A stretch of 44,104 nt of DNA from Asterionella formosa (GCA_002256025.1 NKIB01014374.1:1-44104); one strand, 5' to 3'; positions 286 through 43,388 are shown, counted from the stretch's first letter. The notes: generated by a model not told the origin, from the letters alone. A program made the numbers and translations.

Positions 286-841
286 TTGGACTGGTACCAT
301 GGTACAAGGTTTACAAGTAAATGACGGTATGTAACAAGGTATAGTACCGGTATATGTAGAAGAAAATTAACTATGATAGAATTCCTGGGCGTATACCGAT
401 ATTAGTCTACCGGTAGCGGTATATTCTATGAACCCTTGTATAACCAAAGCTAATTTGGAGAATACGAGTAGCAAGCCATTCGACTGTTTATCAAGCTTCG
501 ACCTAGAACTCTGGTTCAATACTGGTCGAATCGACTGTGTGCAATGTGGAATAATTCAACTCACATCTCTAAAGCTTCCAATTGGAAGTCTGAAAGATAT
601 GAAAGGACAGCAGGATAGTATACAATTGATTGCGATGAACCATAGGAGTCTGGGGTTTGTTCCGACGAGGGCCGGCGCCTGAACTTTTGTGTAATAGTTC
701 TACATCATTCATCCCATGGAATCACAACTGTTTTATGGACTGCTTTGTGAGGTTCAATTCAAAGTGAACCGGAACAGATGCTCCCAATTGAAGTAAGGCG
801 CTTCAATGATTCCGTGCTCCTACCCAGGTCTAGATTTTTAA

Positions 842-922
842 ATCTATTTTGAACAACGTGATCCCATATAGTCGTGTATATTGATGTATTCATCTATTTT
901 GAACAATGTAATCCCATATAGT
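842..922. repeat. 31-bp imperfect direct repeat, period 50 bp
   Basis: atctattttgaacaacgtgatcccatatagt (842-872) and atctattttgaacaatgtaatcccatatagt (892-922), 29/31 identical. Confidence 0.8.
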
Positions 923-981
923 GGTTTGTTTTCATTTATTATAGCTACATGTACATGCAATAGCTAAGGAGCACATCTCGT

Positions 982-1368
982 TTACATGGCGACAAGCCGA
1001 TGACGCTGCTCGTGTCGCTTGTAGATAGTTGACTGCGTGGCCAACTGGCTTAGAGTTGGGCTGGTGCTGGCACTTTTGCAGGAGTCAGATATTTCAGGCT
1101 TGCTTCTAAGTTGTGTATTGACGACAAATCCGTGACGTTGCTCGTGAAGTTTGTACACGGTCGATTTCATGCTCATTTGTCTCATCGTATCCATTATGCT
1201 CTTGTCGAGAGATGACCTTACTGTTACCAATGCAGGTTGAGGCGCAGGCGATGCAGTGTCATTCGTCATATGTCTCATCTCGTGTGTCTTGAAAATGCTG
1301 GAATGATTAGTCATGTCAGTGAAGGCATGAGCAAAGGCACTGACATCAAATTGGTTCGGGGCATACAT
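982..1368 (-). CDS. Small hypothetical protein (128 aa) with three copies of an S[ST][IV][FY]KxHExRH motif
   Basis: ATG-to-TAA ORF. Three amino-acid-level repeats (FTDMTNHSSIFKTHEMRH, MRQMSMKSTVYKLHEQRH, LSQLATQSTIYKRHEQRH) are spaced 46 and 44 aa apart with diverged codons, which argues for real coding sequence. Confidence 0.7.
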   Translation of the reverse strand: MYAPNQFDVSAFAHAFTDMTNHSSIFKTHEMRHMTNDTASPAPQPALVTVRSSLDKSIMDTMRQMSMKSTVYKLHEQRHGFVVNTQLRSKPEISDSCKSASTSPTLSQLATQSTIYKRHEQRHRLVAM

Positions 1369-2467: not shown

Positions 2468-4908
2468 TTACATGTTTTGCAATGATTCCATTTTTTCGAG
2501 AATCTGAACTCTGCGAATCCTCAATGTTGCTTTTGACTTTTTCCATTGAGAAACATGTGTATTTGATCTGTCAGCATCTGCGCCATCACTATTATTGAAC
2601 TGTTGACCACATTTCCATGGGTGTTTTAACTGATTTTGCTTGGTTTTTTCTTTCGCCTGCTGATGCCGAGTAGCGCGTTCCATAGAAGCGATTTGATCCC
2701 TTGTTGAATGGAAACATTAACCCTCACTTTGAATTCAGAATTTGACATTGTACAAAGTTCTGAAATATTTTGATCAGCTATCAACTTGTGAAATGAACAG
2801 TCATCATGGATCATTCTTGAAGCCTCCATTTTCTCTTTTGCCTGTTGCTTTCGCTTCCTGAGCTCCTTGTTATTTTGGACTCCCACCACGGATGCAAGCT
2901 CAATAGTTCTGAAGGTCTCAGTATTGTTATACTTGATGCAATGACTTTGCATCATCGTTCTCAACAAAAGAGAATGTACCCCCAGTAACTCAAGGTCTTG
3001 AAGAGGGGATACAAGTTGAACTGATGATTTGGCCATGGTATTGACAAAACGTGCAGAGTACTGCCAGAGGATCACTTGTAGGAGCTGAATTTCTAACACC
3101 ATAGTACTATCATTGCATTGTTGGTTACCCATCAAGGGGCGGCGAAGCCAATTGAGACGGCCCTCTGTTTGACGATATGCTCTGTATTGCTTTACAGAAA
3201 TTGCCATGCCTTGCTGATTGTTCTGGTCATAGTCACGGTCCTTGTCCCAATAGTTGGACATATTCTTGCATGAATATGCCAAACACTCATAACCAAGTCC
3301 ACCACACTCCCAGCAAAAATAGTATTGACATTGGGAACAACACACATGGTTGCATCCATGGCCGAGAATTTTCAACCTCCATTTCACAGTTGCAAGCTCA
3401 TCATCCAATCTACCTGAATCAATCTCCTTTCGAAGCTTGGAAAAGGTTGCGCATGGTATTCCTGGGTGAGACATTTCACTACAGTCACCACAGCAACTAA
3501 TGCCACATGATTTGCAGATCATCAGGTTGAACCCATCATTTTGTCTAGTGTTGGTACATCTTTTCAGTACATGATCACAGGAGGGAGTTGGAAAAAACCG
3601 AACGAATGTATCATGTAACAAATGGACTCCATTTTTTGTCCGGTTGTATTCATTGAGTTTTTCAAATATGTGCTGACTGTGTTTGTCCTCTCCTTGAGAA
3701 AATAGGACATGTGCACTTTCTGTTATGCCAAGTTTAGTATTGCACTTAAAAGCAGGGCACTTAATGGATGATTCTCCTGAATGAACTGCCGAAGAAAAAT
3801 ATGCTGTCAAACAGCCATTGCACGTGAAGTGCCCACATGGCAATAGCTGATTGATTTTGCAATTATCATCTTGAATTTCTTCAAAGCATACCAAGCAGAC
3901 TTGTGCAACACAAGAAAGTTCTGAATCTACAGAAGCTTTTTCATGAGATTGGAAAATTTTAGGTTTTGTATTGTTGACTGCTTCCAAAACTTGAAAGAGA
4001 TCAAATTGGTCATATGTTATGCCAGTAGAAATCCCGCTCTTGGCACAAGCAACAAGAAGTTGTTTCCATTTTGACTTCTTTGATTCCTTTGCCACAATTC
4101 TTGCCTCCAACAGACCAGTCCACTGGTAAAGGTTTGATGCAAGATGTTGACTAATTATGAGGTAGAATGAAACTGGGTTTTGTATACTGCATGGCAAATC
4201 CAAAGTGACCCAGATGTCTTGCTCCATTGCATATGCTACTTCCCAATCACAACCCACCAGTGGCACGACCTTTGGTAGAGCGCCCATAGTCCACAGAATA
4301 AGTACTGCCGCCCTCCTTTGTTTCGAGATGACAGTCAAGGATGCTCTGGGCTGCGGACCCAAGATGGAGGGCCGAACAGAATCAGGAAGGAGTTGTTGGA
4401 TAAAAAACGAAGCATTAGAGCGCCATGATGGTTTTGTATTCCAAAAAGTCTCAGTGCAAGAGTTGGAGCGAGACCTTTTCCACGACGCATCATGATCCTC
4501 ACAAAATAGGGAAGGAGTCCTCAGACCTTGAGTCCATGATTTGGAACGGATCAGACATGGCGGTTGATCCAAAATGAAGTTCTCGAGGTCCAAGTTTTGA
4601 TTCCCATCTGACTTCTTGTCAGCCTTTTTGTCAATGCATGATTCAGTGGCTACTACATCATTTTGATTTCGAGAAATGTTGTTCTTGTGTTTCTTGGTTC
4701 TCCTCACCTTCTTGCACTTGGTTTGAAGAATTAACAGATCGACTTGCAATGGTGATTGTGAAAGCATGAAGCAATACTCCTCACTGTCATCGTCCATTTG
4801 GATACCATCATCATCCCCATAGTAGTAGTCTTCTTCTCCAACAAAGCCAGTTTAGTATTCCTGAGCTTGAAACTGCATCTCGTCAGCTAGTTGTGCACGC
4901 CGATTCAT
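2468..4908 (-). pseudogene. RBR (RING-IBR-RING, Ariadne-like) E3 ubiquitin ligase, probably decaying
   Basis: The 723-aa ORF (2626-4797) has RING1 (CLVC..PCGHFTCNGC..CPAFKC), IBR and RING2 (GCNHVCCSQCQYYFCWEC). Lesions: in-frame TAA at 4852-4854 in an upstream coding-like extension; IBR RFCP replaced by RFFP; first CxxC of RING2 missing; possible C-terminal frameshift into ORF 2468-2683. Confidence 0.7.
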
Positions 4909-5266
4909 TGCAAGTAGGTTTTTCACAGGTTCCTTCGATACGATGGATAGCAGTGGTTTGAACTGCTGTGATCTTGGGTATGATTACTCCTTTTATGAGC
5001 ACCATATTGAATCAGTTGATGTGAAAGTGATGAATGACTGAGATGATGCAAAGGGTGATTGCAATGCAGGAGTTCCATGTTTCATGAATCGTGCAATCAT
5101 GTCAAACAAGGGAAATGATTATAAATCATACGTTTGGAAAGAATGTTTCAAATTCAAGAACTCATATGCATGGAGAAAAAAGAAAGACCAGCAGCAAGGT
5201 AGACGACGAACAAAATTTTTTATTGCTATGAAATGATACACCCCCGGTAATAGTTCTCCAAGTACG

Positions 5267-5286
5267 GTACCCTGGTACCAGGGTAC
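5267..5286. repeat. Perfect 20-bp palindrome of the GGTACC/TACC(W)GGTA family
   Basis: gtaccctggtaccagggtac is its own reverse complement. Confidence 0.85.
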
Positions 5287-5395
5287 ATACGGTACTACAA
5301 CACTGGCTGTTTGCTTTCCTTATATTTTACCTCAGTATTACCAGTTCTGTTTCATATTTGGAGCCATTATTCACCATTTCATAGTTCTTGCTACT

Positions 5396-9664: not shown

Positions 9665-9859
9665 TCTATCAGCATCACCACGCGTTGAAGGAACGAAGGA
9701 AATGGACAAGAGCAATTGAATGCCTGCGACTTGACACCCTTAGCTATGATTCAAAGGAAGTTTGCAAAGGCGGTCCAACGAATTGGTAGTGTGTTTTGCT
9801 GATTGTCTTAGCAGTACCGCTAAACTTTTATCTACGACCGGTACTGTATAAACTCTACC

Positions 9860-9879
9860 GGTACCAGGTACCTGGTACC
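9860..9879. repeat. Perfect 20-bp palindrome of the GGTACC/TACC(W)GGTA family
   Basis: ggtaccaggtacctggtacc is its own reverse complement. Confidence 0.85.
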
Positions 9880-10794
9880 AGGGGTGCCCAGCACCTCAAA
9901 GTATCTCTCACGTCGCACCATGGTAGGTAGCAGGTACTCCGTACCAGGTACCTCACCTATTGAAGAGTAAACCGTAAAAGAATTCGTGTGTGCGCACAGT
10001 TCATTCGTATGTACAGTTTCACATACGACTGCTGCTATACTAACTATAGAACTAGTAATTCATTATTTCGAGGAAATCAAACCTTCGAAAATAATAGCTA
10101 AAGCCTTTACCAGTGTGTATGTAATAAGTATGATATATACGGCCAATAAGTTATTTAGTCCACGGCTGCACAGATAAACCAGTAATCATCATCAAAGTTT
10201 TTATGCATATTCCGCTATTAAGAAAAAAAAGTCGCGCCAATTATGATGATACACCTTTTCCAGGTTGCTGTTCTCTTTCTTACTATGAAGAAGAATCGAC
10301 TCACTCTGTAGAAACTACGATTATATTACCGGTTTGTACCGACATGCTGCTGGATGCGATCCGGTATACTGTATACCCGCCCAGTGTAACTGAGCAAAGC
10401 AAGCCAAGAATGAGTTCTTTGATACTACCGGTTTTTGGCTTGGTTTATTAATCGTTGTGATGTCCTGTACCAGTCCAGGTTCCTTGTACTCCTACCAGGA
10501 ACCAGGTACCATGTACTCAGTATTAAAAAATTGATTACCAAGTACAGGCATGCGATTTATTCGCATACCTTCGATCATCATCCTGCTGCTTGTTTTATAT
10601 TTAATTCAGTCTTTTAGTACTACTTTATTCTTCGTGGTTTTAATCCCATCATACCGGTACCAGGTAGTTACTTCGACGTTGCTGAGTTGCTTGCTTGACA
10701 CTTGAGTTCTCGGGAAGAATAGGAATCTGACAGCGAAACTGACATACCTGAGTAACATAATAGCTTCTTTCGCATCATAATCAGTCATTCAACA

Positions 10795-12378: not shown

Positions 12379-15175
12379 TTAAGAAATCGTTTTCTTGAAG
12401 AACCAGCTCGAAAGTTTTGTTTGCTTCCCAGATGCTTGTTGCTTCCTACTTCCGGCCATTTGCTCATCCCTTGATTCCGGTAATGAGGAATTGAGCTCGC
12501 CCTTGTCTCCTTCTGGTGTGACCGTCTTTGCCCTCTTGGTCGGTCGTGGAACGGGGACACCAGTAACCGCCACTTTCCTTGAAGTGCCTTCCCTGTCACT
12601 GAGAGAGTAAGACGACGATGATGAGCTTCGCTCAACAGTGAATCCTCCTGTGTTGTCTACATTGCCTCTAGCGGTGACTGTGCTTGTCCCAAATGTAGAA
12701 ATACTCTCAATCTCGTCAGTGAACTGGGAAAATATCTCATCCTCGGATAGCTCTGCAGCCTTTAATTCCAACATGTACCTATTTTCTTCAGCTCGAGATC
12801 TTTTGCCATAGACCTTGGTATGTCGTGCCTTCCCCCCCTTGATGACAGGAGTAACGGCTCGACTTCTCACTTCATTCTTGGACAACTGTTCGTTCGAATC
12901 TTGTTCGTCACCACTATTGTTCGGATCATGAAGGCGCACTACCTTACCTTTGTCAGTTTTCTTGTTCTTTGGTGTTGTGGCTTCCTTCTCAGAAGTCTTT
13001 GCGATTATCTCACGGAAGTGGTTGCTTCGCTGATTCAAATCAATGGGACCAAGGGGCGTTCGCTTCTCTCCCTCGGGGGTTGCTTGGTCGTTGACGACGA
13101 AATTATCGCAAGGCTTGTTCTCCAGCGTTGGCTCTTCCTTGTGAGATGTTTCTTGTTCCACTAAACCCTTATTCCAGCGCACCGGCGAAACTTTCTGGGA
13201 CTCCTTTACCTGCATGTCATCTCCTGTCCGTGTGCTCAAACAAGTGAAACCGTCATCTGAACTATCTTTTGAAATATTATTGTCCACTTCCTTAAATGAC
13301 GACCTACTCTTCTCATTGTCAAATAATATGATCTTGATACTTTGGTTTGAGCTTTCATCGTCGTTCAAAGACCGAATGACTGGATCGTCCAACGGATGCG
13401 TGTGGGTATCGCCATCCGACATTAAGATCCACTCGTGTACACAAGCATCGCTCACAGAGATGCGCTTTGTTGGATCAGCAAGTAATAACTTCTTAACTAA
13501 ATCCTCCGCTTCCTTCGAGATGCCATGCCACCGATTATGAGGGAACTTAATCTTGGCTTCGGCTACTTCATCAAAACCTTGACTGACATCGAAGGGAGGA
13601 GCTCCACTCAGCAAAATATACAGAATTACACCAATAGACCACATATCGGCTTGCTTGCCTGACGAGAAAAGTGAGTACATTATTGGATAAAGGGAGGAGG
13701 GGAGCTCAACATATTATCACACTGCACGCACCGTAGCGACCTTGTCCTGCAACTGTATTTTGTCGTCGAAGTACTTCCGGGGCAAAGTATTGAGGGGTTC
13801 CACAAAATGTTTTGAGACCGTCTTCTGTCATTGACTTTGCCAAACCAAAGTCCGTCAACTTGATGTCAATGTCCGACTGGCGGTTCACTACCAAAATATT
13901 TTCCGGTTTTAAATCACGATGGACCACATTTTGTTCTTCGTGTAGGTAGTAAACAGCACTAAGTAGCCGGCGCATCACTTTCCGACTTTCTAATTCTGTG
14001 TATTTTCCTTTTTCCACAATTCTATCAAAGAGATCTCCACCGTGCAATAGCTCCATGACCAAGTAAATGGCAACACCAGGCGCCACAAAAACGTCATGTA
14101 GTTTGACAATGTAGGGATGATCTAGGGCTTGTAAAATCGACGCTTCCGCTTCTAGAGTGGCACTGGCTTCATCTGTCAGTCTGACGCCCCTATTGCGACC
14201 AACAAGAGAAATAACCTTGACTGCGCGTTCTTCTCCGGTGCGTCGATGAATGGCTCTGCGGACTTCTCCAACAGTTCCTGCTCCCAATATGTCCCGAATA
14301 TCATAAAACTGTTCGACTCTCCGGGGTGGTGTGGTTTTTGTAGGCGATATTCTCGACCTGGCGTTGCCTTGATGCATGAAGAAAGGTTGCGGATGAGCAT
14401 ATCGATCAAGAGAGTGATTGACCATGGCTTTTGGGTCCACCAAGCCTTTTTTGCGAGCTGACGCGGATAAAGGGGGAGGCATCATTGGTCGTTTTTGGCG
14501 CAAACAACTCATGAGGGAGGACTGATGACCTTGCTGTTGCTGAAATATATTGACAAAAATAAATGCATGCTTTCTGTGGAGCGATTGGAGCATGTCTGTA
14601 GCACTAATTTTCTTTTGCAGGGTTTGAGGGTTAACCAGACTTATTTCGTCCCCGGTGTGCAAAAGTCGTTTCTCACCCCTTCGCAGCAGGGTGCTTCCGT
14701 TAATAAGCGTTCCATTCCCAGAAGTGTCTTCAATGTAAACTTCCATTTCTAATGATGGCCCAGGTGACTTGAGCATACAATATATTTTGCAGTGAGTGTT
14801 GCTAATCATGGCATGAACCCAGTCGTGCAACGCAAGCAACTTTTTGTTGTCTATGTTTTTAGGCGGTGGCTTTGCCTGTACATCACATTTGGAGCTTCTC
14901 CCCAGCGTGTGTAAGTTGAATATATCCACAGGTCGCAATCTTTCCAATCCCATGAAATGAATTCCACCGATTCGCTTTTCATCGGGAGGTTCACGGGGTA
15001 ACAAGTCAAGTCCTCCGCTCCGCTTGTCGCCTGAACATGGAACAAGTCGTCCCCAAGGTTGTTGCTTCGGATGGATAGCAGCATGGGGAGGGAGGGGTGA
15101 AAACAGATTGCTGTCTTCATCAACGGCGAGCTGTGTCAATTCATTTTGAGTCATGGGCTCTGGTTGTGTCATCAT
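12379..15175 (-). CDS. CHK2: Chk2-like checkpoint kinase (TQ cluster + FHA + Ser/Thr kinase + long disordered tail); exons 15175-13732 and 13658-12379
   Basis: N-terminal TQ repeats (MTQPEPMTQNELTQ); FHA motifs GR..SNTH..DTSGNGT; kinase motifs HRDLKPEN, DFG and TFCGTPQYFAPE. Splicing out one GT-AG intron gives a continuous GRYG-KQADMWSIG (kinase subdomain IX). Confidence 0.85.
13659..13731 (-). other. Spliceosomal intron (73 bp, GT..AG) in the Chk2-like gene
   Basis: Donor G|GTGCGT and pyrimidine-rich acceptor ttttctcgtcAG|GC. Removal joins the two kinase ORFs in frame. Confidence 0.85.
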
Positions 15176-16783
15176 CTGATGTGTCGTCAAGCAAAAAGTG
15201 GGTTATGCATCAATCGAACAATAAAGGGAAGAAATTTAGTTAACAATAGAGGCACGCAGAAGTGTTGAGCGAAATGAAAATTCGTCGGAATTCAATCACA
15301 CAAGGAAGGATCCACAACAGCGTGCCTTGCGTATAGGAGGGTAACGGTGTTATTTGAAGATCAATGCCCTTCCATGGAAGGATTTGATCACACATAAAAA
15401 GAAACACTTTTTCCTTACCTCGGAAAATTGGGAATTGTACTCGTCCTTCTGTTGCAAATGATGCGAGCTTACTTTGGGGAGTGGGGGTTCCATGCCGTTG
15501 TCTCGTTCTATGAAAGGCGCTTTGTTTGTCTCAACCATAAAACAAGTGTTGAGTGTATGCAATAGCTACCGGTACAACGTAATAAATTCTCTTTAGACAT
15601 ATGATACATCTATCTGGTAAATTATGTAGAAACGAAGGTGATCAGTATCAAGCTTGCGGATCATTCATGTAGGAAACAGATGCATCAAGATGAGATCGTT
15701 TGATTATTATATATCATTGCTTTCTTCGATTCAAAAATTTGGCGCGCATTTTTTAATGGTGAAAGGAAATCAAACTGACGGGGTGTATGTCCGTCCATAC
15801 GTAGGGATGCTGATTATAGGACACGTTTCAGTACGACATGCTGCCTTTGCTTTCACATACTGTGCAAGTCGCGGTAATGTTGCTGAAGCTAAAGTTTAGC
15901 TATCTTTATCCCATATTAAATTGTTAGTTTAAGCATAATTACTGCAACTTGCTGGCACCTGGTACCATCAGTCGAGCGCTAGTACCCCAAAACACGTTTT
16001 GCACAGAAGTCATCATTTATGTACCGGTATGTCTGTGTTCTTTTTATTCATATACCTGTACCTCTATTCAATCAACAAGCAATGCAGTCATGCTTAGCTA
16101 ATCAATCCCCAACCCACAAAAATGACAGCATATCGGTATTCCACATATCTGGAAAAAATTAAATAAATTAATTTTTCACAGCATATCAAATCTAGTACCG
16201 TGATGTAGCAGCTTTTTTCGACAAGTTACATTCATTATCACGATGGTATACATGCTTGATAGTACGGTTGTTGTCGCTCTGCCGCTCCTCAAAAGCAACA
16301 TTTCATCATAAAAATGTTCACTCCGCATGTAGTAGGATGAGCATGAAGAATGACGAGACAAATTGTTTGCTTTCGCGTCATGATGACATCAAAACAATCG
16401 TCGATTCTTGACACCATCATCATTCTGATGTTTGCATACCGGTACTTGCTGTGACGACGAAGATTCGCGATCTTTTTCTGCGTATAGGTAGCTCTGTGTA
16501 TAATATGCATCGAAGATATGTGGTTGTACCTGGGACCCTGTTTCTACCGGTAGACCGGTATACCGGTACCTGGAATCGAATTACCGGTATTTCTTGTTGA
16601 GGATGATGTTCCAAGGATCAATAGGCTATTGCGTGCCCGCATGACGGAGTATCGTGTTCCCATCATGACAGGCTTCCCAACTTGACTTTTACTTGGATCC
16701 TCATCGGCAATATTCACTCTTAATCAACAAAGTGCTCGACGATCAGGCCATCAGGCAACATAACACATATCACCTGAAACAAG

Positions 16784-20122: not shown

Positions 20123-20152
20123 GTACCAGGTACCATTTTTGGTACCTGGTAC
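20123..20152. repeat. 13-bp perfect stem with 4-nt loop built from the same motif family
   Basis: gtaccaggtacca-tttt-tggtacctggtac. Confidence 0.85.
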
Positions 20153-26705: not shown

Positions 26706-27436
26706 GATGGTGTGGTTGTTGTTGTCGTCGTCGATTTAGTTGTCCACAAAAACTTGACAACGATGTACAGTGGCACTACCGGTAGTACTGCGGTGATACC
26801 TGGCACTCGGAGTACCTGGTACACCCTGGTGGTAGCAGTAGCTGGTACCCGGTAGTCTACCATACCTGGTTCTCCCAGGGATCTGTACCAGGTACCAGGA
26901 GGTACTCTACATGGAAGGTCCGGTAAATGACGGTTTCTAAAATAATTACTATGGAAAAATTCAGTCAGTAAGCAAACACCGGTATCTCAATTCCCAGAAT
27001 TTCCGTGATGCCAGGTTACCACCAGGTAGACCGATCTGTTGCATACAAGAGTACCAGGTTCAAACCTCCTATTGCACAACTATGTAGGAGTACCTGTATG
27101 TATCTGTGCGGCGAGGACGACTCATCATTAACCCTCGTCTGCCTTTCATCAGCTGATCTCGTCGTAGAGGAGGAACCAACAAAAACAAATTGTTAAATTT
27201 ATATCTTTGAAATACCGGTAGCACCTCCATACCGTAGATATTTGTAATACGACGGGACTAATAAAACCCAAACGAGAAACGTGTAGTATGTACTATTATT
27301 GTATCATACAAAATTAAAAATGTCTACCAATAATAAACTGACATATTGGTACTGTTGATTTGTTCTGCCGACAACAGTTCATCACTTCGACTTTACCACC
27401 ATCAACGAACGTATTGTATTAATTGGTCAATTAAGA

Positions 27437-31187: not shown

Positions 31188-32267
31188 GGATGCAATAAGG
31201 CTATGATCTGAAACGACGAATGAGTGTAAGAAAGAACAAGCGAATTATAGTTAATAGCAGTAGTCACCCACGCTGATGTAAATAATGATACCAAACGAGG
31301 CGACCGCAATCAGTACCAGGAACCAGGTACCATGATACCTTGTGTGCCGGGTATGCCGTTGAGACCCTTTGACTCGACATGCATTATAAAATATATCATA
31401 CATGTACAAAGAGCAGCCAAGACGAGAATATTCAACCCCGGCGCGTTGTGCAATGATGCATCGAGCAAGACGAAGCCAATTTTTCGTTTCGTGTGGAGCG
31501 AGATAAAAAGGAGGCAAGAACTATAATAATAGAAATCTGCTAGACTACAGAAATCTAAATGTTAGTCTAGATTTATACATGTTTTTAGAGAAAAATAATT
31601 GATTCGTGAATTGGATAAATAAATTCGACCTCGCGATGGCTATGTTGCATTGCTAGGAGGAGTACTGGTACCAGGTATCATACTACGGTACCGGTATATG
31701 GCCTATGTGCAACCACATTGTAAATTATTCCGGTTCCCTGACAATCCCTCTGTCTGAAAACAATTGCTGCGTATGAGATGGAGTAATAATTGCAAACTAT
31801 CATAGCTGCCTCATATAAAATTTATGAGACAGGAGAGGAGATCAAGCTACAATAGTATCATATTCCATGGGATTGTTCACGTTCTTGACGTAGGTTAGTT
31901 AGTAGCTCAGGCTGGCATACTGGACCTTGAGGAGAATGATCGAGGAATCCATCAAAGAAATGCATTCGCAGAGTATCAAAACTAACCTGGCTTTGGCAAA
32001 CCAAAAAATCCATGCAAACGAATGCCTGTCATGGAATCAACGTTCGTCGTCCATCAAATCTGTTAGCCGCCCTGCCAGAGATTATACAACTCTAACTGTG
32101 AACCTGGTTATGAGGGTAAATGGAATGTGGGCGATTGGCCAACTGGCAGGAGGAGAAAATGAATTTTCAGGGGCTGTGAAAGTACAGAAGAATTTCAGAG
32201 CTTGAATTCAGATAGCTGAGCATTTCTATGCCACGATATAGTTATGCCTGTTCCACATCAAACCACT

Positions 32268-33491: not shown

Positions 33492-33659
33492 CAGGATCAG
33501 ACTTCGAAAAATACCATACACAGATATGCAACCTTTGTGCTTCAAATGTTTACATGTACCGGTAGACGAAAAGGGCAATAGAAAATCCTAATCAGTCTTG
33601 TGTTTTATAAGCTAAATAATATTTTTCATGATGCCAATTGAGCAATGCAGTCGTTTTTT

Positions 33660-33774
33660 CAATTTTCAACTTTTCATCTCTTGGCAAATATTGGCAGCAT
33701 TCCAGATTTGAGCTACTATTCTCATTTTTGGAATGCTGCCAAGATCCGCTGAGAGACGAACAACTCGAAAATTG
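33660..33774. repeat. Long imperfect palindrome (about 54-bp arms, 8-bp loop), MITE/foldback-like
   Basis: Perfect core ttggcagcattcca (33691-33704) / tggaatgctgccaa (33729-33742), extending with mismatches to caattttc...gaaaattg. Confidence 0.75.
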
Positions 33775-34189
33775 CTAATCGTGAATTGCGGCTATTTCGT
33801 AATTTCGGAGACTGATCACTAATATTTTTTCATTATGTAGAAACCTTTTGAGGCTTTGTTTCCTAGTGGTAACAACAGAGTAATGCTTATACAGTGTCAA
33901 TAAAGCAAAAATGTGATTGTATTGACAAACTTTACCTGAATCATCATTCTTGTTAGCATAACATTTCATTTGCATTGATGGTGTTGCACAAGAACATCAC
34001 AGATGTTGATTGTAGGGTTATATGGTGGTCGTAGCTTGGAGTTTAGTGAATTATACACATTGATGTTGTCAATGATGTATTAGCTGTGGTGAAAAGAATT
34101 TTAATGATACACTCAACCATCAGAATCTATGAACCACAACTGCAAGTGGTTGGGACAAACACAAAATCTGCTAGTCCCACCTGATCATA

Positions 34190-34830
34190 TTGGTCCATTC
34201 TGGATGACTCCTGGTGAGCGAAGTTCATGCCAACATGATTTCCCTTTTAGTGCAATAATAACACACCTCGAGATAGGTCGGAATTGATTGCTGATGTTCC
34301 TTCAAGTGGAGCTAACACCAAAGGTAAGAAGAAATGAGAGCTTCAGAATATTTCTTCTTCCTTGTATGAAATTGAAACTACAAGACAAGGAACAATATAA
34401 GTCAAGGATGGCTCCTGGGAAGGCGAGGCAAGGCAAAGGGGTTAACGCAAGTCATGTAGAGAAGAGAGTTGACTGATGGGCATGACCTTAGTACCTTACT
34501 ATACAACATTAACTGGATGGCAAGATGCACATAAAATCGTCAACCTTGATTCAAGTTTGAGGCACATCATGTCAATGTGTACTGACTTCTACTCAGAAGA
34601 GAACACTGGAATGATGAGCACATGATTGGCTGGGACCAAGGTTGGAATTCTTAGTTGCCTTTAGGTCATCATGTTCACACCAACGTGTTCTCATGCATAT
34701 ATGTGTGCTGCCTGTGCCACAGGGGCATGCTGAGCAAGTGAAACCTGTCACTGAAGGAGAAATGAAGGGGGCAAGGGGTGGGAAGCATTTGATTATGTCT
34801 ATCAGAGGAATGAAATTTTTCTAGACAAGC
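34190..34830 (+). mobile_element. Heavily degraded DDE (IS630/Tc1-mariner-like) transposase relic
   Basis: Frameshifted peptide fragments in order: GPFWMTPGER (34192), GKAKGLTQVM*RRELTDG (34427) and LTG..SSLRHIMSMCTDF (about 34510-34589). These resemble, from memory, the 'KGLxQVLWERGL..SLRHIM..C.DF' transposase-like family of diatoms and fungi. Confidence 0.55.
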
Positions 34831-35452
34831 TCATCAGTACATGTTGGCTTACCATGATCATGTCATGCAATTGTTGACTCTGGCCAATTCAATCCAGCAC
34901 TACAGCAGCAGTACTATCAACATGTTCCAGTGGCAATAGAAGGCCTTGTCAAAGAGATGAAGATTCATGTGCATTGATGTGCCTTGGACTTCGATCACAA
35001 GCTTGTAATGAATGTAAATTGACTGAGCAATTGCTGATTGTTGTAGTGTGCTGGAAAACATAAAATACATCAATACTTGTATCTTTATATTTATACTTAA
35101 CAATATTCTCTGACAATTATTATTATACATATATTAGATGATTTATCGAAATTGTATGATTGAGGTGCTATCCAGTGGTTTATAGAATCCTCTGTGGCTC
35201 AAGTTTACAACATTTTCTTTCCGGACCTTGAGTTCTTTAGTAATGTGAGCTTGATTCAGAATGAAGTCAGTATCCCTACTGGTATTGCGGGAAAGTCTGA
35301 TGAACATGCAACCATTGATGGAATAGTACATGTTACCCGGATTCTTACTCACCACGCATGTTACTACCAGTATAGGGAAAGGTACGGACATTCATTCGTG
35401 TATCACATGGTTCGCAGTAGGATAAATGGTACCATAGTTGCAACTATATATC

Positions 35453-36664
35453 TTATAACCACTCAATAGATGATGGTAACACCAACCCCACTCGCTTCAA
35501 AACTGCCTTGGCGACTTTTTTATTGGCCAATGATGTCAAAATTCCTTTTAACCGCAAACAGTTGAGTTCGTGTCCATCTAAATCTCCTGGCCGCAGCGGT
35601 CCTCCCTCCTTCACACTCGCTGCTGACAAGTGTGCCAGTGTTATCGCCGTTGCGACACTCAAATTGAAGGATTCTGCAAAGCCACTCATGGGCAAGACAA
35701 ATGTTTCGTCCGCAAGGTCCCTCATTTCGTCAGATATCCCAGTCAATTCATTGCCCATGACGATGCAGATTTTATCTTCTGGCCAACTAATGTCTCGAAT
35801 GTCCTTAGCGTTCGGATTTAAGTCACTGGCATATAGTCGGTATCCCTTAGCTTTAAGTTTCTTGACTGCGTCTCTGGTGGTCAAGTGATTTCTGATTGTC
35901 AACCACTGCGCCGACCCCATGGCCGATCGCATGCCTTGTTTCTGTGCCAGTTTTGTCTTTCCGACGTATTTTTGTGACTCCACCACCATGTCCACGTGTT
36001 GCAGTCCAAAGGAGTCCATTGTTCGAAGACAGGCCCATACATTGGAGGGGTTGGACGGATTTTCAAATAGAAACCGGCAGTGTTGTGTGCGTTGCTGTAG
36101 AACTTGGTTCATTCGATCCATCCGTGCTGGCTGTAAATAAGGAGTCAGGGCAGCAGTTGCATCCACCACTAGTTGTGGGTCTAGTTGTTCCAGTGCTTCC
36201 CACTGTCGATCCAAACGAGCTGCCGCGATTTTGTCTTGCTTCGTTTCGTGGTCAATGATCTCGTCAAGTTGCTCTTGTGTCTCTGCAACCACGGCACGTA
36301 ATGCATTCGGATCAAAGCGAGTGTCCCATTTAGGGTTTTCGCCAAAGTCAAAGTTATCCCATTCTAGTGTTGGTAGTAGCATGGTACCTTGCGACAAGGG
36401 CTCGTCAGACGAACAACCATCATGATCACTGCTGGAGGATAATGTACTACCGGTACTTCCATTAGTGCCATGGCGCGAAGTAGACGTCGTCGTGGTCGTC
36501 GTGCCGATTGTAGTTCTGGTAGCTCGGTCCCATCGGGTCGTGTGCAATGATCTTGTTGTCCATGCAACTCGTGTCTGGAAGGAGAAGGCTCTCGTTATTG
36601 TTGCTAATAACAGCAGCATGTTTGATGTACTAAGGAACAACAGAGGAACCCAACGTGAGCTCAT
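35453..36664 (-). CDS. SpoU/TrmH-family (SPOUT) tRNA/rRNA 2'-O-methyltransferase, probably plastid-targeted
   Basis: Signal peptide + TRA-FSF and an S/T-rich transit region; SPOUT motifs ENPSNPSNVWACLRT, IVMGNELTGIS and LPMSGFAESFNLSVA. Confidence 0.9.
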   Translation of the reverse strand: MSSRWVPLLFLSTSNMLLLLATITRAFSFQTRVAWTTRSLHTTRWDRATRTTIGTTTTTTSTSRHGTNGSTGSTLSSSSDHDGCSSDEPLSQGTMLLPTLEWDNFDFGENPKWDTRFDPNALRAVVAETQEQLDEIIDHETKQDKIAAARLDRQWEALEQLDPQLVVDATAALTPYLQPARMDRMNQVLQQRTQHCRFLFENPSNPSNVWACLRTMDSFGLQHVDMVVESQKYVGKTKLAQKQGMRSAMGSAQWLTIRNHLTTRDAVKKLKAKGYRLYASDLNPNAKDIRDISWPEDKICIVMGNELTGISDEMRDLADETFVLPMSGFAESFNLSVATAITLAHLSAASVKEGGPLRPGDLDGHELNCLRLKGILTSLANKKVAKAVLKRVGLVLPSSIEWL

Positions 36665-36841: not shown

Positions 36842-36875
36842 GATGGATGGATGGATGGATGGATGGATGGATGGA
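36842..36875. repeat. (GATG)8 microsatellite
   Basis: Direct reading. Confidence 0.9.
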
Positions 36876-37284
36876 CATGGTCCAACACGAGATCATGATA
36901 TACCAGCACAGTAACCTGTAGAATGCAGGTGTCTTGCAAAATATCTAATAGAAACGTTCGTTTACCAGGTAATCATTATTTGACTGTTTCTGTAATATTT
37001 ATTTATTGGCTATTGCTGAGAAGAACTTTCCTACTGTGTCTTCAAATTTTTTTTGACTTTTTATTTATAGATGGGATGTAAAGAAAGCACCGTACTAGGT
37101 AGGTACCAGGCTAGGTTTAACCAGGTATCTACCGTACCGGGTAGTTTCATTATATAGTGGTCCAGACATGAATTTATATGTAGTGCAATAAATGATAAAA
37201 TATTTAAACATTTTTTCAAAAGATACAACAAAATCGACCTTTCCTTCCATCATGAAACCCCATACTGGCATATTTTTAATAAAA

Positions 37285-37432
37285 ATGGCGGGACCTCCTG
37301 CAACTCCACCCCCCGAGGCCGTCGTCTCTGATCACGAACAGCATCAGCAACAGCAGCAGCAGCAACAGCAGCAACAACAGCATCAGCATCGGCAGCAACA
37401 GCAGCAGCAGCATGTCTCACAGCAGCAGCAGC

Positions 37433-37484
<52 letters not shown>

Positions 37485-39891
37485 ACAACAACAACAAGAC
37501 ATGCATCATCACGAGCAAACATCAGATAATGTTGCATTGTTGTTGTATTCTCAGACTCAAAAACAACAACATGCCGTTGCTTTGGCACATTATTACGAAG
37601 CCAGAATGAGAGATCATGCTGCTGCCTATGCAACTGCTGCAGCAGGGGCAGCATGGGCAACTGCACAGATTATTTCAAGTTATAATGATGAACGACCAGG
37701 AAAACGACATCAGGGAGTGACGGTCCCAAAACAACAACAACAGTACCAAGCACAACTGGCTCCACCTGCATGGAGACCAGACGAAGGTGCGCAAGGAGAA
37801 CGACGAGGACGACGAAGGCAGCGAGATGCCACAGATTGGTCGGCACGGAGATATCATAGAACCAACTACAGTACAGCGTCAACGAGTAGTGACGACTCGA
37901 AGCGCAAGACGAGCAGCAGCAAGCGAGGAAAGAAAGATACGAATTTATTAGGCAAAACGGGTGTATCGGCGCTGCATGAATGGTGCGACAAACGACGCAA
38001 GGTTCCAAAATTTCACTCAACTGAAGTGGACTCCGACTTTGAATTTTCTGTCACGGTGGAAGGAAAAGAATGGGGACAAGGAAGAGGTACCACCAAAGGA
38101 GCAGCCAAGCAGGACGCAGCACGAAAGGCCTTGCAAGCATTGTTACCAGGGGTACTCTTTGATACCAATGGCATCGTCGTGGAAATTCCTTCACGCGGGG
38201 AAGCTGAGCTTGAAGAATTGGCCCCCAATTTGGCTAGACGCCTTGCCATTGGTACACCAGAAAACAACACAACCTCCGAAGACGATACCAAACGACGTCG
38301 CAAGCAATATGAAATTTATTCAACCACCACGTCTGAAGACGACGATGACAATGAATACTATGCCAGTAGAGGCGCATCAGTATGCTCCGCGCTCCTCCAT
38401 GCCATGTGGCAGATAAATGATCGTATTTCAGAGCCACCCGCATTTGACTTTGAGCTGTCACCAAACCCAGTTCAGCTAAAGAGAAAGGATACAGTGGGAT
38501 CCACAATTCCGGTGCATCGAACTAGTTTTAAATGCACGGCGAAACTGCGCCTGAGAAATAGGCTATTGGGTGAAAGTGAAGACGACGGTGCGACCGAAAC
38601 CTTGATAGCCGTTGGAACCGGAGCCACGAAGCGCGAAGCGCGTCACGTGGCGTCTGCCAAATTACTAGCCTTGTTGTTTCCAGACTGCAATGGTATGGTA
38701 GAAGTCAAGGCAGCGGCAGAAGCGGCGAGAGAAGCACATGCAGCTCAAAAGGCCATGAAGCAGCAAACTAAACGACAAGCCAGTTTTACTCACTTTCGCC
38801 GGGGCCGACGGAGGTTGGAAGATTCAGAATCTCCAACGTTGAAATCGACGTTGCTAGGCATGCCCAAGTCATGGGATCCGCCATTACCAAATTCACTGTC
38901 AAGCTATCTATGTAGTACTCTGGGATTCAATAGTGATGCCCCCCTTGTGGAAGAAGACTTGCTTGGTGTAAGCGTGGAAGCCTTGTCAATATCCGAAAAG
39001 CCCGCAGGACCTCCCAAAGAATCGGTTGCGGCATTGCGAATCCATCCTCGTGTGTCATCCGGACAACCCAACACGAGACAAAAGCAACTCCAAGACGTCG
39101 TAACGTCAGCATTGCATTTGCAAACGGTAGGAGACGATGACGTCAACGAAGATGTGGGACGCATTGTCTTGAGGTTGGGAGAAGCAAGTGATTTAAAATG
39201 GATATACAGGCTGCTTAGAAATTCTGATGCCAATAAGAGTTATGTTGTGGGACGACCCGGAGTCAAGCAAAACGCCAGATTTGTGGGGTTGCCTGGTCCA
39301 TTCTCCTTACTGCAGCTCAAACCATCGCACCTCATTTCTTACAAGGACGATGGAGTCACTTCATCAAATGTCGCGTCACGACTATGGGGTCCTGTCACGA
39401 TTATTCTACTCTTGTGTCGAGCGATTGCACCTTTGGATGAACCCCCTCTTGGCTGCAGCATTTTGACCTTGGGCTTTTCGATGAAACGTGGCAAAACCCT
39501 ACGCATAGCCGAAATTGGATTTGAGCCGCACTTACCAAGAGAACGATTCATTGAATGTTTGGAGCATTTCGCTGCAAATATGAAGTGCACATTGGAAGTT
39601 AACAATGAAGTGAAATCCGGCAAAACTCAACTGAAGTGTGACTACTCCACAGAAGTGTGTTGGACCTTCGATGAGCTCCTCGAGATTGTCGAACATCACA
39701 TCAAGGGACCACCTAGAAAATTCAACGGTGGTGGCGATACCACCGAAGAAGATGATGTTGCTAAACTTAACACAGGTGCCCCGCTGCAGTCGGTGAAAGA
39801 AGAGACTGAACTTGAGGAAGAAAAAGAAAAGCTAGACGATCTCTCTCAGAAACAGTCTGTCAAGCCTAGTAAACGGTCTCGTGTAAGTTAA
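37285..39891 (+). CDS. PolyQ protein with two double-stranded RNA-binding domains and a possible degenerate GNAT-like C-terminal domain
   Basis: dsRBD1 VSALHEWCDKRR..GQGRGTTKGAAKQDAARKAL; dsRBD2 SALLHAMWQ..AVGTGATKREARHVASAKLL. The start is uncertain (37192, 37252 or 37285). Confidence 0.8.
37339..37497 (+). repeat. CAG/CAA repeat encoding a roughly 50-residue Q-rich tract
   Basis: Direct reading. Confidence 0.9.
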
Positions 39892-39906
39892 GCTTTGTAA
39901 TTAAAC

Positions 39907-42900
39907 TTAAAAGTTTCGTGTTGTGCCATTTTCAACTTCAGTACGCACTCGGTGATGCATGTCGACAAGGAAATTGGTATAATTGCCGCACCCACTAATC
40001 GTATCGTCCACCATTAGCTTCATTACCATGTCGTCAAAGGGATCTTTGTGAGATGGATGTTGAAGGACTACAATACAAGGTGGGTAGGAAGGGCGTAGAC
40101 TGGATTCGCTGCCACCTCCAACTGATACGTGAGTACGCATCTGCCACAATAATCGATATACTTTTAGCCCAACATCGGATGAAGTCGAAACTCTGCAACC
40201 CTTGTCACTGTCGCTCTCGATAATCTCGGCCTTGATATCCTTTGGTGCATCATGTCCCACAAAAATAAAAAGGTTGATACCGTCATCGATGAGATAAATG
40301 TTTTCATCCTCCATGGAAGCAATACTAGGATGAATGGAATTCGGTAGCTGAACAAAGGCATGGTATGCAGCTTGTTCAAGATCGGATCTAGCATTCGATA
40401 TTAGCGGGATCTGCCAATCTCCAGCTCCATCGAACAAGTTCGTAAGCGGGAATATGTTTGGGTGTACCAGCAACATGGCGCAAGCTGGTGTCACCGACGC
40501 TGCGTGAAACAATGCATATGCTCTGTCGTCGGCATTGGGACTAGCTCGGTTCACTCGAACTTCAGAATTCCGTGGTGGCAATGCTGATCGAAGGATTGCG
40601 CTCTTCATCAAACTCATGACATACAATGGCAACAGCTGAAACTTTGTTGGGAGTAAAAGCTGTCCTGTTGGCGAAGGCGAAGTTTGAGCATGTAATCGGT
40701 ACTTAGCCAAGAGGTGAGTGCACTTCTTCATTAGATCTTGCCGCGCTGCGTCGAGCGTGCTGAGCCTGTCATCATTAGCAGTCCATAAATGATTGACTGC
40801 TTGACGAGAGAGCAAAGCAGTGTACGCGCCGAAGTCGGAACATCGAAAGATATCAAGTGGATCAGACGATACTCGAAGCGCCAATGTTGACACTCGGACC
40901 CGTCGTCGACCATTGATCGCTGTGTACAACGTCGCCACTTGAATGTAGACCAATCTTTGCTTCTTGTTAATTCCACCTACTCTATGCTCTAATTCAACGG
41001 CGATGCAAGTGTTTGGCAACACTGCAGATAATTCTAATTCTGGAGAACCAACAATGCCACCATCGACTGTGGTTCCTGGTGCTGTAGACGAAAGGTATGA
41101 TTTCACTTCAATTCCTTCCGAAGATCGTACTTTGAATATCACATCGGTACCGACAAAGGAGAGGATTGGTCGACATAATTCTTCTCTGAATTGCTCCTTC
41201 CAATCAGGAGCCCTAATCCATTTCAGCGTCCCGGACGATTTTCTACAAAGCTCACCGAGAGTTCCAAAATCCAAAAATGCCATGGGTTTTGGCAGTGTAT
41301 GCATGATGATATCCACACATATTCTATTCCTGGAGCAATCTTGTCCCAGCTTCTTATAGAAATCAGCCGTCGTTTGCTCCGGGCTTTGTAGTTTCCGTTG
41401 AAGTTGCAACGGACAATACAACGGTCGTTCGCTTGATTCATTGGTATAGAATTGCAGGTTGTTGAGTTCTCTATCCCGAATGAGTCCCACTCCAAAATTA
41501 GGGCGTCTCCATGAGATCCATGTGGCTCGCCCTCCACAGTCTTTGAGAGCATCAGCCATGAACGCCAATGCCGCACCACCGCAAGACGAAGCATATCCCT
41601 TGGCTCCTTGTGCAATTTCTTTCAACGAATGCTGCCACAGGATCAATACTTTGGACATGCACAATTTCCATGCTTCTACACCTTCGTCTGTCGACACATC
41701 ATATGTCCATTGTTCCAGGGGCAAGTGACAAAATGGATCCTCTGTCACATCCGACATGACGGAATATGCAAGTTCACCGCTCGAATCAGTAAAATAAGAA
41801 ATTCCTACTCCAAAACTAGATACAAGAACACATCCGATCCTAGGCTTCGCCATGAAGGGTCCTTGTTGTCTTTGATAGTGCTCACCCATTTGAATTCCAA
41901 CGAGAGTGATAATTTCCACATAGGTTCGTAAATGTGGACACGTTGCATCTAAGGCATATATCGACGTTGCCCCCACGGGATTTTCTCTTGTGACGTATGG
42001 TCCATTGACTTGATAGTCAACTGTCCCATATTGAGTTGGCTGTATATCATTGTTTTTGCTTCCACAAAAATTGCAAGTTCCATCTTGGCCCCAATATGCA
42101 TTGGCGTAAGCATGGCAATTTCTGCATCTTGAAGGAGTCATGGAGGTTAACGGTATTCTCTGTGGGTCAAAACCACCATCATCATCACCATCTGCATAAC
42201 TTCCATCCGGATATATTCTTGGGCGCGGCACAAAATCATGACTTGGCAGTGCCAATGGTGTACATAATATTGCAAAATCAATACCAAGCTTATTTGCCAT
42301 ATTTCTGTCCCGGGGAATGGCATACATTGTGGATCGCAATAAGTGTGGAGAGGCATTTCCATCATCTTGGCAAAGAGTGCGTGAATCAGCAGGTGGCGGT
42401 ACTTGGATTTCATCCAACTCCATGGCACGGCGTGGAAAATAGATTGGAATGGGCTGAGATGTTGTTTGAGGCCGTGTAAAGAGAGGTGGTCGTGGAATTT
42501 GAGATGGATCAATTTTACGGTGGTCATTTGGTGGTTGTTTTTGCTGCTGCATTGGAGGTGGTTGTTGTAGTTGCTGCATTGGTGGTGACGGAAGGCCGCG
42601 GTCAATTGGAGCAGGCGGATGGCTTCCAAAAATGGGAGGTCCAGGAGGTGGTGGATAAGGGCGAGTAGATCCAGGATGATCCAATGCATGGGCATTTCCT
42701 GACGGTTGTTGTATCGTTGTGAACGAAGGAGGAGGGGGAGTTGGCATCATTATAGGAGCAGAATGCATCATTCTCGGTGGCGGTGGTGGATAATGTGGTG
42801 GTGGCAGCAAGTTCTGTGCCTGCACATAGGATGCTGATGGAACGTGGGGAGGATTCGAATAATATTGCGGCGGTGTATGATGCATTCCATTCATTGCTGG

Positions 42901-43113
42901 TGGAGGAGCTTGCTGTTGATAAATATTCCTTGGCAGACTCGAGGTAGTATTAAACGTGGGCGGCGGCGGCTGCTGCTGCAGCTGCTGCTGCTGTTGCTGC
43001 ATTGACACTTGATGATCTACTTGTCTTTGCTGACTTGTGTATTTGAAAAGAGCAGGGGGAGTAGGAAAGTGACCTCCTGGAGGAGGGGGAGGAGGAGGGG
43101 GAGGGAACGACAT
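39907..43113 (-). CDS. SEC24: COPII coat subunit Sec24
   Basis: Pro/Gln-rich N-terminus; KIDPSQIPRP; DDGNASPHLLRSTMY; zinc finger CRNC..CNFC; trunk, beta-sandwich (QVATLYTAINGRRRVRVST), helical (LLPLYVMSLMKS) and gelsolin regions. The start is set at MSFPPPP (43113). Confidence 0.9.
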   Translation of the reverse strand: MSFPPPPPPPPPGGHFPTPPALFKYTSQQRQVDHQVSMQQQQQQLQQQPPPPTFNTTSSLPRNIYQQQAPPPAMNGMHHTPPQYYSNPPHVPSASYVQAQNLLPPPHYPPPPPRMMHSAPIMMPTPPPPSFTTIQQPSGNAHALDHPGSTRPYPPPPGPPIFGSHPPAPIDRGLPSPPMQQLQQPPPMQQQKQPPNDHRKIDPSQIPRPPLFTRPQTTSQPIPIYFPRRAMELDEIQVPPPADSRTLCQDDGNASPHLLRSTMYAIPRDRNMANKLGIDFAILCTPLALPSHDFVPRPRIYPDGSYADGDDDGGFDPQRIPLTSMTPSRCRNCHAYANAYWGQDGTCNFCGSKNNDIQPTQYGTVDYQVNGPYVTRENPVGATSIYALDATCPHLRTYVEIITLVGIQMGEHYQRQQGPFMAKPRIGCVLVSSFGVGISYFTDSSGELAYSVMSDVTEDPFCHLPLEQWTYDVSTDEGVEAWKLCMSKVLILWQHSLKEIAQGAKGYASSCGGAALAFMADALKDCGGRATWISWRRPNFGVGLIRDRELNNLQFYTNESSERPLYCPLQLQRKLQSPEQTTADFYKKLGQDCSRNRICVDIIMHTLPKPMAFLDFGTLGELCRKSSGTLKWIRAPDWKEQFREELCRPILSFVGTDVIFKVRSSEGIEVKSYLSSTAPGTTVDGGIVGSPELELSAVLPNTCIAVELEHRVGGINKKQRLVYIQVATLYTAINGRRRVRVSTLALRVSSDPLDIFRCSDFGAYTALLSRQAVNHLWTANDDRLSTLDAARQDLMKKCTHLLAKYRLHAQTSPSPTGQLLLPTKFQLLPLYVMSLMKSAILRSALPPRNSEVRVNRASPNADDRAYALFHAASVTPACAMLLVHPNIFPLTNLFDGAGDWQIPLISNARSDLEQAAYHAFVQLPNSIHPSIASMEDENIYLIDDGINLFIFVGHDAPKDIKAEIIESDSDKGCRVSTSSDVGLKVYRLLWQMRTHVSVGGGSESSLRPSYPPCIVVLQHPSHKDPFDDMVMKLMVDDTISGCGNYTNFLVDMHHRVRTEVENGTTRNF

Positions 43114-43388
43114 GACAATTAGGAAGAAATGTAATGAAGTCGATCCGGAGGCTATTTTCGTGTTGGTTCCAAATGCTGAGTACCATAATAATACGTAGTA
43201 GAGCATGGGCTGATTTGGATGCATATGATATATTTATACCGGAATGCGTACTAAAATTTATGCTGGTGCTTCTTCCCAGAGCGCTCCAGAGGAACTGACT
43301 GCCCTGGAATGGACCGGTCCGCAAGATCTTTCTCGCGCCGCTCGTTTGCATATTATTCTGCTACCGGTATGTAAATACCGGTAGTGTC

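Follow-up and report, generated by a model that had tools for sequence, protein, structure and literature searches.

Why should one palindromic octamer, TACCGGTA, occur 26 times in 44,104 nt of DNA assigned to Asterionella formosa (GCA_002256025.1, NKIB01014374.1:1-44104; this whole stretch is called the window hereafter)? Its enrichment, its promoter-only location, its clustering, its presence in independent assemblies and its identity to a predicted oomycete promoter motif are directly established. We read it as a promoter cis-element of the diatom nuclear genome, bound by a dimeric factor, a reading to which we would give about an even chance of being right; binding by a protein, and any effect on transcription, are what we infer from these observations.

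An exact search returned the 26 copies, about one per 1.7 kb, at precisely the positions where an earlier reading of the DNA by itself (the sequence-only reading hereafter) had counted them by eye. That reading had expected fewer than one copy by chance, and rightly so: dinucleotide-preserving shuffles of the window contained 0.19 copies on average and 2 at most, with none of 100 reaching 26. It had also proposed low-order Markov correction as a test of the excess, which survives it, as models of orders 0, 1, 2 and 3 expect 0.64, 0.19, 0.29 and 1.17 copies, respectively. Orders 4, 5 and 6 expect 6.0, 19 and 24.7 copies, but these figures are circular, most of the 5- to 7-mers contained in the motif, ACCGG and CCGGT among them, being contributed by its own copies. 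When all 8-mers of the window are ranked, TACCGGTA comes first, followed by CAACAACA (n = 20), which originates from coding CAA/CAG runs; the remaining high-ranked 8-mers either overlap TACCGGTA or belong to a second word, GGTACCAGG. Each pair of one-mismatch variants occurs at most 6 times, and the exact palindrome dominates these neighbours.

The octamer is accompanied by a one-base-spaced form, TACC-N-GGTA, which is present 13 times (central base A in 7 cases, T in 3, G in 2, and C in 1), and counts fall sharply for spacers longer than one base. Related words are also in excess outside the open reading frames (ORFs): non-coding DNA holds 70 CCGGTA/TACCGG (7.9 expected) and 32 ACCAGG/CCTGGT (7.0 expected); ACCGGT is found 36-37 times outside ORFs, with 4.4 expected in non-coding DNA, and 4 times inside them; and 27 of the 32 GGTACC lie outside the ORF mask, for a non-coding expectation of 5.8. 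The spaced variants and GGTACC had been reported to gather at the same places as the octamer, and the 13 spaced sites do fall in the same intergenic places. Among the strings found between consecutive TAs in non-coding DNA, CCGG (24 vs. 0.52 expected under a second-order model trained on non-coding DNA alone) and CCAGG/CCTGG (10 vs. 0.3) stand far above all others. In the arrays, adjacent units share a TA, giving a TA-unit-TA-unit structure, as at 20090-20103 or at 9856-9882, which parses as TA-CCGG-TA-CCAGG-TA-CCTGG-TA-CCAGG. A T just before the motif or an A just after it is rare, with about 4 such cases in 50 flanks (a count made by hand, without statistics). Neighbouring sites are spaced by 14-23 bp seven times, for 1.5 expected, and none of 5000 permutations reached seven; with 7 pairs only, we do not claim from this excess any helical phasing over about two turns. 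Finally, a search for direct repeats linked the sites only through array segments of 18-21 nt; sequences on either side of the arrays are unrelated, so that the lack of flanking homology noted in the sequence-only reading largely holds. Fragments of one transposon family, or of one family of miniature inverted-repeat transposable elements (MITEs), do not fit the data, as the copies have no homology beyond the motif and its arrays.

The window comes from the nuclear genome of a freshwater diatom. Long ORFs make up 68% of it (about 30 kb), and their Pfam matches (dynamin, Sec23/24, SNARE, FHA-kinase, ceramidase, ABCB7-type transporter, and DEAD-box helicase) belong to eukaryotic trafficking, signalling, and metabolism. 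The best named relatives of the ABCB7-like protein are diatom proteins, from Fragilaria crotonensis (70%) and a "Thalass-" MMETSP entry (75%), then from Seminavis, Nitzschia, Fistulifera, and Ditylum, and other relatives reach 81-84%; a relative with shared synteny has proteins of 80-84% identity together on one contig of 39,947 bp. The public runs that contain the stretch are labelled as algae, freshwater, or lake-water metagenomes. The kinase gene, on the minus strand, has two GT..AG introns that are spliced in RNA contigs. The sequence-only reading had proposed a eukaryotic origin and a transit peptide, both of which are consistent with these domain matches, with the diatom relatives and with a Ser/Thr-rich presequence described below.

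The TACCGGTA sites are not an assembly artefact, because contigs from three runs of other studies, two of DNA and one of RNA, span them: a contig of run X7 (record 13) over 21576-22553 with 4 differing letters, a contig of run X14 (record 4) over 15163-15593 with 1 differing letter, and a contig from the RNA library of run X9 (record 25) over 16273-19576 with 7 differing letters. Confinement of the motif to a faulty contig, one of the outcomes considered in the sequence-only reading, is thereby set aside; taken together, the shuffles, the Markov tests and the independent assemblies exclude chance or artefact as the origin of the excess. Many further contigs of those runs match the arrays only and then continue into unrelated sequence (in X7, for example, 8 at 9860 and 6 at 20135), and others join one array to another. 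One has to keep in mind that such contig joints can arise from repeats or from other organisms; the array strings probably recur at other genomic loci, and the motif is probably not confined to this contig. Joints that connect two arrays (such as 9879-9882 with 20113-20115), like the parts of the stretch that RNA contigs leave uncovered, were not retained as rearrangements and are treated as shared short words or other loci.

Where, then, do the sites lie relative to genes? We considered 39 sites (the 26 exact and the 13 spaced ones) and classified the spacers according to the orientation of the flanking ORFs. Promoter-bearing spacers hold 35 of the 39 sites, and 8 of the 10 such spacers are occupied; the six convergent 3'-3' spacers, which total 1,934 bp, hold none, where about 5 would be expected by simple proportion. 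The other sites are two at the left end of the window and two inside the ORF mask. Only one of the 26 exact sites (36448) lies in real coding sequence, in a low-complexity presequence, while the site at 33557 precedes the first ATG of its gene, so that the claim that all octamers but one are outside coding sequence is borne out. From the viewpoint of the genes, 13 of 16 carry at least one site in the 600 bp that precede their ATG, and most sites stand 50-400 bp upstream of it; this distance holds no site in the case of the ABCB7-like gene and its divergent neighbour, nor in that of the SNARE-like gene. The sites are as follows (a strand is given where one is assigned):

345-352 and 408-415: two exact TACCGGTA at the left end of the window
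9856-9950: array 5' of the dynamin-like gene, with an exact site at 9856 and spaced sites at 9862, 9869, and 9942
10652-10666: exact site and overlapping spaced site, 27 nt ahead of the start of the ceramidase-like RNA contig
15567-15574: exact site, which the FHA-kinase transcript contig includes in its first exon (15419-15607)
16022-16029: lone exact site in the kinase/PEMT divergent spacer
16437-16589: four exact sites (16437, 16545, 16561, and 16582), 195-340 bp 5' of the PEMT-like ATG, within one metatranscriptome contig
19864-19871: exact site, 155 bp 5' of the glutaminase ATG
20012-20293: cluster with exact sites at 20090, 20096 (overlapping), 20193, and 20286, and spaced sites at 20012, 20124, and 20143; a hot spot of strain indels
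22078-22187: four exact sites within the 482 bp of a divergent promoter; the plus-strand gene's RNA contig begins 53-59 nt beyond them
26777-26894: exact site at 26777, 50-64 nt past the end of the minus-strand gene's RNA contig, followed by three spaced ones (26813, 26846, and 26886)
27213-27220: exact site, 102 nt ahead of the start of the DEAD-box helicase RNA contig
31669-31696: one spaced site (31669) followed by an exact one (31689), both 766-786 bp 5' of the SNARE-like ORF
33557-33564: exact site, 66 bp 5' of the aldo/keto-reductase gene's first ATG; an ORF call that begins at a TTG includes it, but the site is not in real coding sequence
36448-36455, minus strand: the sole exact site in coding sequence, read as S-T-G-S in the Ser/Thr-rich N-terminal presequence of a SpoU-type methylase
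36963-37143: two spaced sites (36963 and 37135) in the SpoU/dsRBD divergent promoter
43362-43383: exact sites at 43362 and 43376 (14 bp apart), 138-152 bp 5' of the Sec24-like ATG

Within the dynamin-like array, positions 9860-9879 form a perfect 20-bp palindrome, and the stretch 26777-26894 is dense in CCWGG and GTACC words. For four genes, sites are found outside the 5' end of the RNA contig, at 27 nt for the ceramidase-like gene (contig end at 10693), 53-59 nt for the gene at 22319 (22240/22246), 50-64 nt for the gene ending at 26705 (26713/26727), and 102 nt for the helicase (27322); a fifth gene, which ends at 21836, has its nearest site 212 nt outside the contig end (21866).

Comparison with the contigs of other runs, from which 12 of 25 indels and 40 of 108 substitutions were listed, shows that individual sites come or go as complete units, about as often as point substitutions occur. 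The contig of run X7 that covers the 482-bp promoter, with 4 different letters per about 1 kb, carries an extra TACCGG exactly at the TA of 22064-22065, which creates a new TACCGGTA; the same contig is devoid of the 6-bp unit at 22180, where the TA remains, and both forms of this site exist in run X7 (depth 4.94 of 9.15). In the 20012-20293 cluster, other strains lack, among others, 2 bp (TA) at 20088, 12 bp at 20136, and 6 bp, and show small gaps grouped around 20174-20193; an RNA contig of run X9 has 14 additional bp (two CCTGGTA units) behind 9946. The motif arrays hold 9 of the 12 listed indels. None of the 40 listed substitutions hits an exact site, though too few of them fall in promoters for this to be meaningful.

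Oomycetes and diatoms are both stramenopiles. In Phytophthora infestans, the predicted promoter motif M94 is TACCGGTA itself, and M93 (TACATGTA), listed beside it, has 4,150 occurrences in promoters (PMC3597505). The inverted repeat GTACCGGTA, called motif-9, is found upstream of 1,284 Phytophthora genes, and its authors suggest a homodimeric factor (PMC3520976); streme-5 of Plasmopara halstedii, ATACCGGTAT, has the same core (PMC10031896). Open-access text, in which figure logos are not searchable, yielded no report of TACCGGTA in diatoms, where ACCGGT turned up in cloning primers only. A metagenome scan for orthologous promoters, based on an ABCB7 alignment of 13 sequences, returned none, its hits being mostly prokaryote-type homologues at 40-54% and three short loci at 52-64%. 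A 17-nt array string was found elsewhere at 45 loci of prokaryote genomes and at 3 loci of viral contigs, without a motif density like that of the window, and these were rejected as chance matches. Rfam gave no match over the whole window.

We propose that TACCGGTA is a two-fold symmetric site, whose half-sites TACC and GGTA would either abut or stand one base apart (usually A or T), and whose two halves would be occupied by a dimeric, sequence-specific DNA-binding protein; some dimeric factors, such as the bZIP proteins, tolerate a one-base change in half-site spacing. Single or in small clusters, the sites occupy the spacers between gene starts and neighbouring genes, where most of them either lie slightly within the 5' end of an RNA contig or precede it by a few tens of bases. 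Because the genes that carry them are functionally unrelated (dynamin, ceramidase, kinase, glutaminase, helicase, Sec24, and others), we think that the factor would act at promoters or boundaries in general and not as the regulator of one pathway. Individual sites have a fast turnover: 6-7-bp units can be gained or lost by slippage between the TA direct repeats, which could give rise to the overlapping arrays and to presence or absence between strains; since the motif carries these TA repeats itself, arrays and unit-length losses would need no extra agent. We favour this reading because of the promoter location, the proximity of RNA 5' ends, the homotypic clustering, the unrelated housekeeping genes and, above all, the identity to the oomycete motif. 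The sequence-only reading had hesitated between a sequence-directed process and an abundant DNA-binding factor: the factor fits best, given the promoter confinement and the oomycete motif, and insertion retains some support from the 6-, 14-, and 2-bp indels at TA. One fully specified 8-bp word thereby marks about four-fifths of the promoters sampled, in organisms whose promoter grammar is little known; found in oomycetes too, it would offer a handle on a possibly ancient stramenopile promoter factor, as well as a compact element for synthetic promoters.

Several points weigh against a bound cis-element. M94 is a prediction and is not among the six motifs tested with a reporter (PMC3597505). 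The distance from site to RNA contig end is not constant, the site at 15567 lies within a 5' exon, and the clusters 9856-9950 and 16437-16589 fall within metatranscriptome contigs, keeping in mind that contig ends are a rough proxy that cannot define transcript starts. Two promoter regions, 4798-5395 and 33579-35452, have no site, except for one at the edge of the latter. Overlapping neighbours 6-7 bp apart are found 4 times for 0.34 expected (3 of 5000 permutations reach 4); such sites cannot all be occupied simultaneously and look like a mutational product. The X7 and window strains are about 0.4% apart and already differ by the precise presence or absence of 6 bp at two sites of one 482-bp promoter; therefore, individual sites are not strongly conserved. 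Lastly, a cis-element leaves the origin of new solitary sites unexplained.

The main alternative is that TACCGGTA is a scar of the Tc1/mariner type, in which a duplicated TA surrounds the CCGG or CCWGG terminal bases of an excised element; the scars would be neutral, possibly co-opted later. We regard it as unlikely, though far from negligible. The element would land harmlessly in open promoter DNA, and its re-insertion at the new TAs would build arrays with shared TAs. We hold it equally unlikely that the motif was written rather than selected, by a TA-specific cut-and-paste activity (of the mariner/Tc1 type or a domesticated relative) revisiting open promoters. The excess of TA-bounded CCGG and CCAGG/CCTGG strings is what a scar predicts in form, without telling its origin, and the arrays parse accordingly as TA-unit-TA-unit. 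The strain polymorphisms occur at TA, whether the extra TACCGG at 22064-22065, the 6-bp absence that leaves a TA at 22180, the TA indel at 20088, or the 14 bp at 9946, and the array location of most listed indels goes in the same direction; the indels are, however, unpolarised, and the losses can be explained by slippage between TAs. A palindromic 4-nt overhang would presumably re-ligate cleanly, without heterogeneity. The partial scars that end-joining should produce are not enriched (TA-CC-TA/TA-GG-TA, 7 vs. 10.5 expected; TA-CCA-TA/TA-TGG-TA, 5 vs. 5.1), TA-CCG-TA/TA-CGG-TA being the only partial form to be mildly raised (8 vs. 2.6). The 3'-3' spacers are empty, even though insertions should be tolerated there.

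The element itself is not in evidence. Looking in the 44 kb for TA|CC...GG|TA ends with inverted repeats, we found 12 pairs matching at 12 or more of 16 bases, none of them convincing; the best one, at 20019-20151, matches at 13 of 16 bases and is borderline by chance. No transposase domain was detected in the 19 ORFs scanned, and the open-access literature searched contained nothing relevant on mariner excision footprints or mariner-like inverted repeats in diatoms, and linked TACCGGTA with transposition through primers only. The oomycete promoter octamer would, moreover, demand an element with like ends in both lineages. As for oomycetes, taCATGta is a published Tc1 footprint, and this was discussed for motif-1, the sister of the oomycete palindrome, although the authors dismissed the footprint reading on the grounds of conservation and abundance (PMC3520976). 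Should scars be the answer after all, tens of thousands of identical ones would be present in the promoters of this diatom, gained and lost between strains; the abundant oomycete motifs TACATGTA and TACCGGTA, which both have the TA-NNNN-TA form and are both overrepresented in repeat-rich DNA close to effector genes, would be scars of the same kind; and protein binding would be a secondary co-option. Motifs laid down by TA-targeted insertion would represent an unusual promoter-shaping mutational signature, and the published oomycete motifs would deserve a second look.

Two further segments of the window may be described here. The stretch 20019-20151 is 133 bp long and bounded by TA, with inner ends CCAGATGTCAAAAATG and CCAGGTACCAAAAATG in inverted orientation; it encloses the 20090 array and may be a small TA-inserting element or a product of chance. 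At 15865-15952 lies a hairpin-like element of 88 bp with imperfect inverted arms of about 29 nt. It is present in high copy in DNA runs, the summed word depth of contigs in run X7 being 212 vs. about 5 in the neighbouring bins; many contigs branch at 15891-15952, and another copy of the element directly adjoins a TACCGGTACCAGG array. Its features resemble those of a MITE; it matches no Rfam family, and its fold has a z-score of only -1.6.

The mutational side of the problem could also be handled without any transposon, if the 6-7-bp unit, with its own TA repeats, propagated by itself, slippage and template switching expanding, contracting and perfecting palindromes in promoters as the least constrained DNA. 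We consider this quite unlikely. The overlapping adjacent units, the perfect 20-bp palindrome at 9860-9879 and the concentration of unit-length strain indels in arrays all speak for it, but most sites are solitary copies of 1.33 units in unrelated flanks, and such copies do not slip. Nor can slippage seed the same octamer at independent loci, while the loose contig ends at 9860 and 20135 suggest recurrence elsewhere; the absence from 3' spacers and the enrichment in oomycete promoters are not accounted for either. Other sequence-specific roles, such as chromatin boundaries or recombination sites, appear improbable to us. HIP1, the iterated palindrome of cyanobacteria, is common inside genes. 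A HIP1-like drive, by which a methyltransferase acting on CCGG/CCWGG or on the ACCGGT core and biased mismatch repair would ratchet near-matches genome-wide, has in its favour a perfect 8-bp palindrome at such density with overlapping words next in rank, as in HIP1 genomes (PMC4390886), but it is very improbable here, since the motif is nearly absent from 30 kb of ORFs (with ACCGGT showing the same avoidance) and absent from the six 3'-3' spacers, whereas a ratchet would be expected to reach synonymous and 3' positions as well, and since the listed strain differences are unit indels and not substitutions toward the motif; the HIP1 analogy put forward in the sequence-only reading finds no support as a mechanism.

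Returning to the window as a whole, some observations made along the way stand apart from the octamer. Non-coding CGACGA/TCGTCG (16 vs. 2.4 expected) and TA-GC-TA (TAGCTA, 11 vs. 2.8) are over-represented and unrelated to TACCGGTA, and an identical 21-mer, TACCAGGAACCAGGTACCATG, occurs at 10493-10513 and 31314-31334, at promoters that are not linked and amid flanks that are not related. A long poly-Gln CAG/CAA run (37315-37540) inside the dsRBD-containing ORF is the source of the window's other frequent 8-mers. The ORFs at 12379-13680 and 13706-15190, on the minus strand, form one FHA-kinase gene within 12379-15607, whose introns, according to the RNA contigs of two runs, are 13658-13730 (73 nt) and 15176-15418 (243 nt), with a first exon at 15419-15607. 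The glutaminase gene (17805-19709, minus strand) has its best named relatives in red algae and cyanobacteria (37-43% identity) and not in diatoms, other relatives being at 80% and 99%, and may have an unusual history. At 21867-21900, there is an AT-rich TTAATTAATTGATTAATTAATTG stretch, passed over as a repeat in the contig comparison, where RNA contigs of two runs end (21866). The 735-aa ORF at 24498-26705 (minus strand) has as sole family match 26 residues of the T4 endonuclease VII dimerisation domain (E 1.6e-8), with no stretch that passes by itself.

How does the promoter palindrome compare with known systems? With HIP1, it shares the status of top-ranked octameric perfect palindrome, and RCCGGY is the core of a highly iterated sequence of one cyanobacterium, which is linked to an RCCGGY methyltransferase (PMC4390886). 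It differs from HIP1 in being part of eukaryotic nuclear DNA and confined to promoter spacers instead of being spread through genes; the resemblance is one of form only, not of mechanism. Tc1/mariner footprints resemble it in the TA-NNNN-TA architecture, in the arrays with shared TAs and, at least in appearance, in the 6-bp presence or absence at TA; it departs from them, in the 44-kb window, by the lack of a convincing matching element, the lack of enriched partial footprints, and a promoter-only distribution, and footprints are not known to come anywhere near the density observed here. Yeast Reb1/Abf1-type sites and the apicomplexan TGCATGCA octamer are short specified words found near transcription starts in many promoters of unrelated genes. 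The likeness is that one short word serves a large share of unrelated promoters; the sequence is another one and so, probably, is the factor, and rapid turnover by unit-length indels is not known for either kind of site. The closest parallel is provided by the oomycete motifs: M94, motif-9, and streme-5 have the identical palindromic core, an upstream location within 0.5-1 kb of start codons, and stramenopile hosts, and motif-9 adds abundance and a homodimer interpretation. The diatom sites differ from them by a far higher density (13 of 16 genes, often with several copies each), by the accompanying one-base-spaced form and overlapping arrays, and by their carriers, which are housekeeping genes, whereas the oomycete motif was tied to infection-stage expression and effector genes. 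We consider that TACCGGTA in this diatom belongs with the stramenopile promoter palindrome, of which it would be an unusually dense version, with a spaced variant and a quick turnover of whole units.

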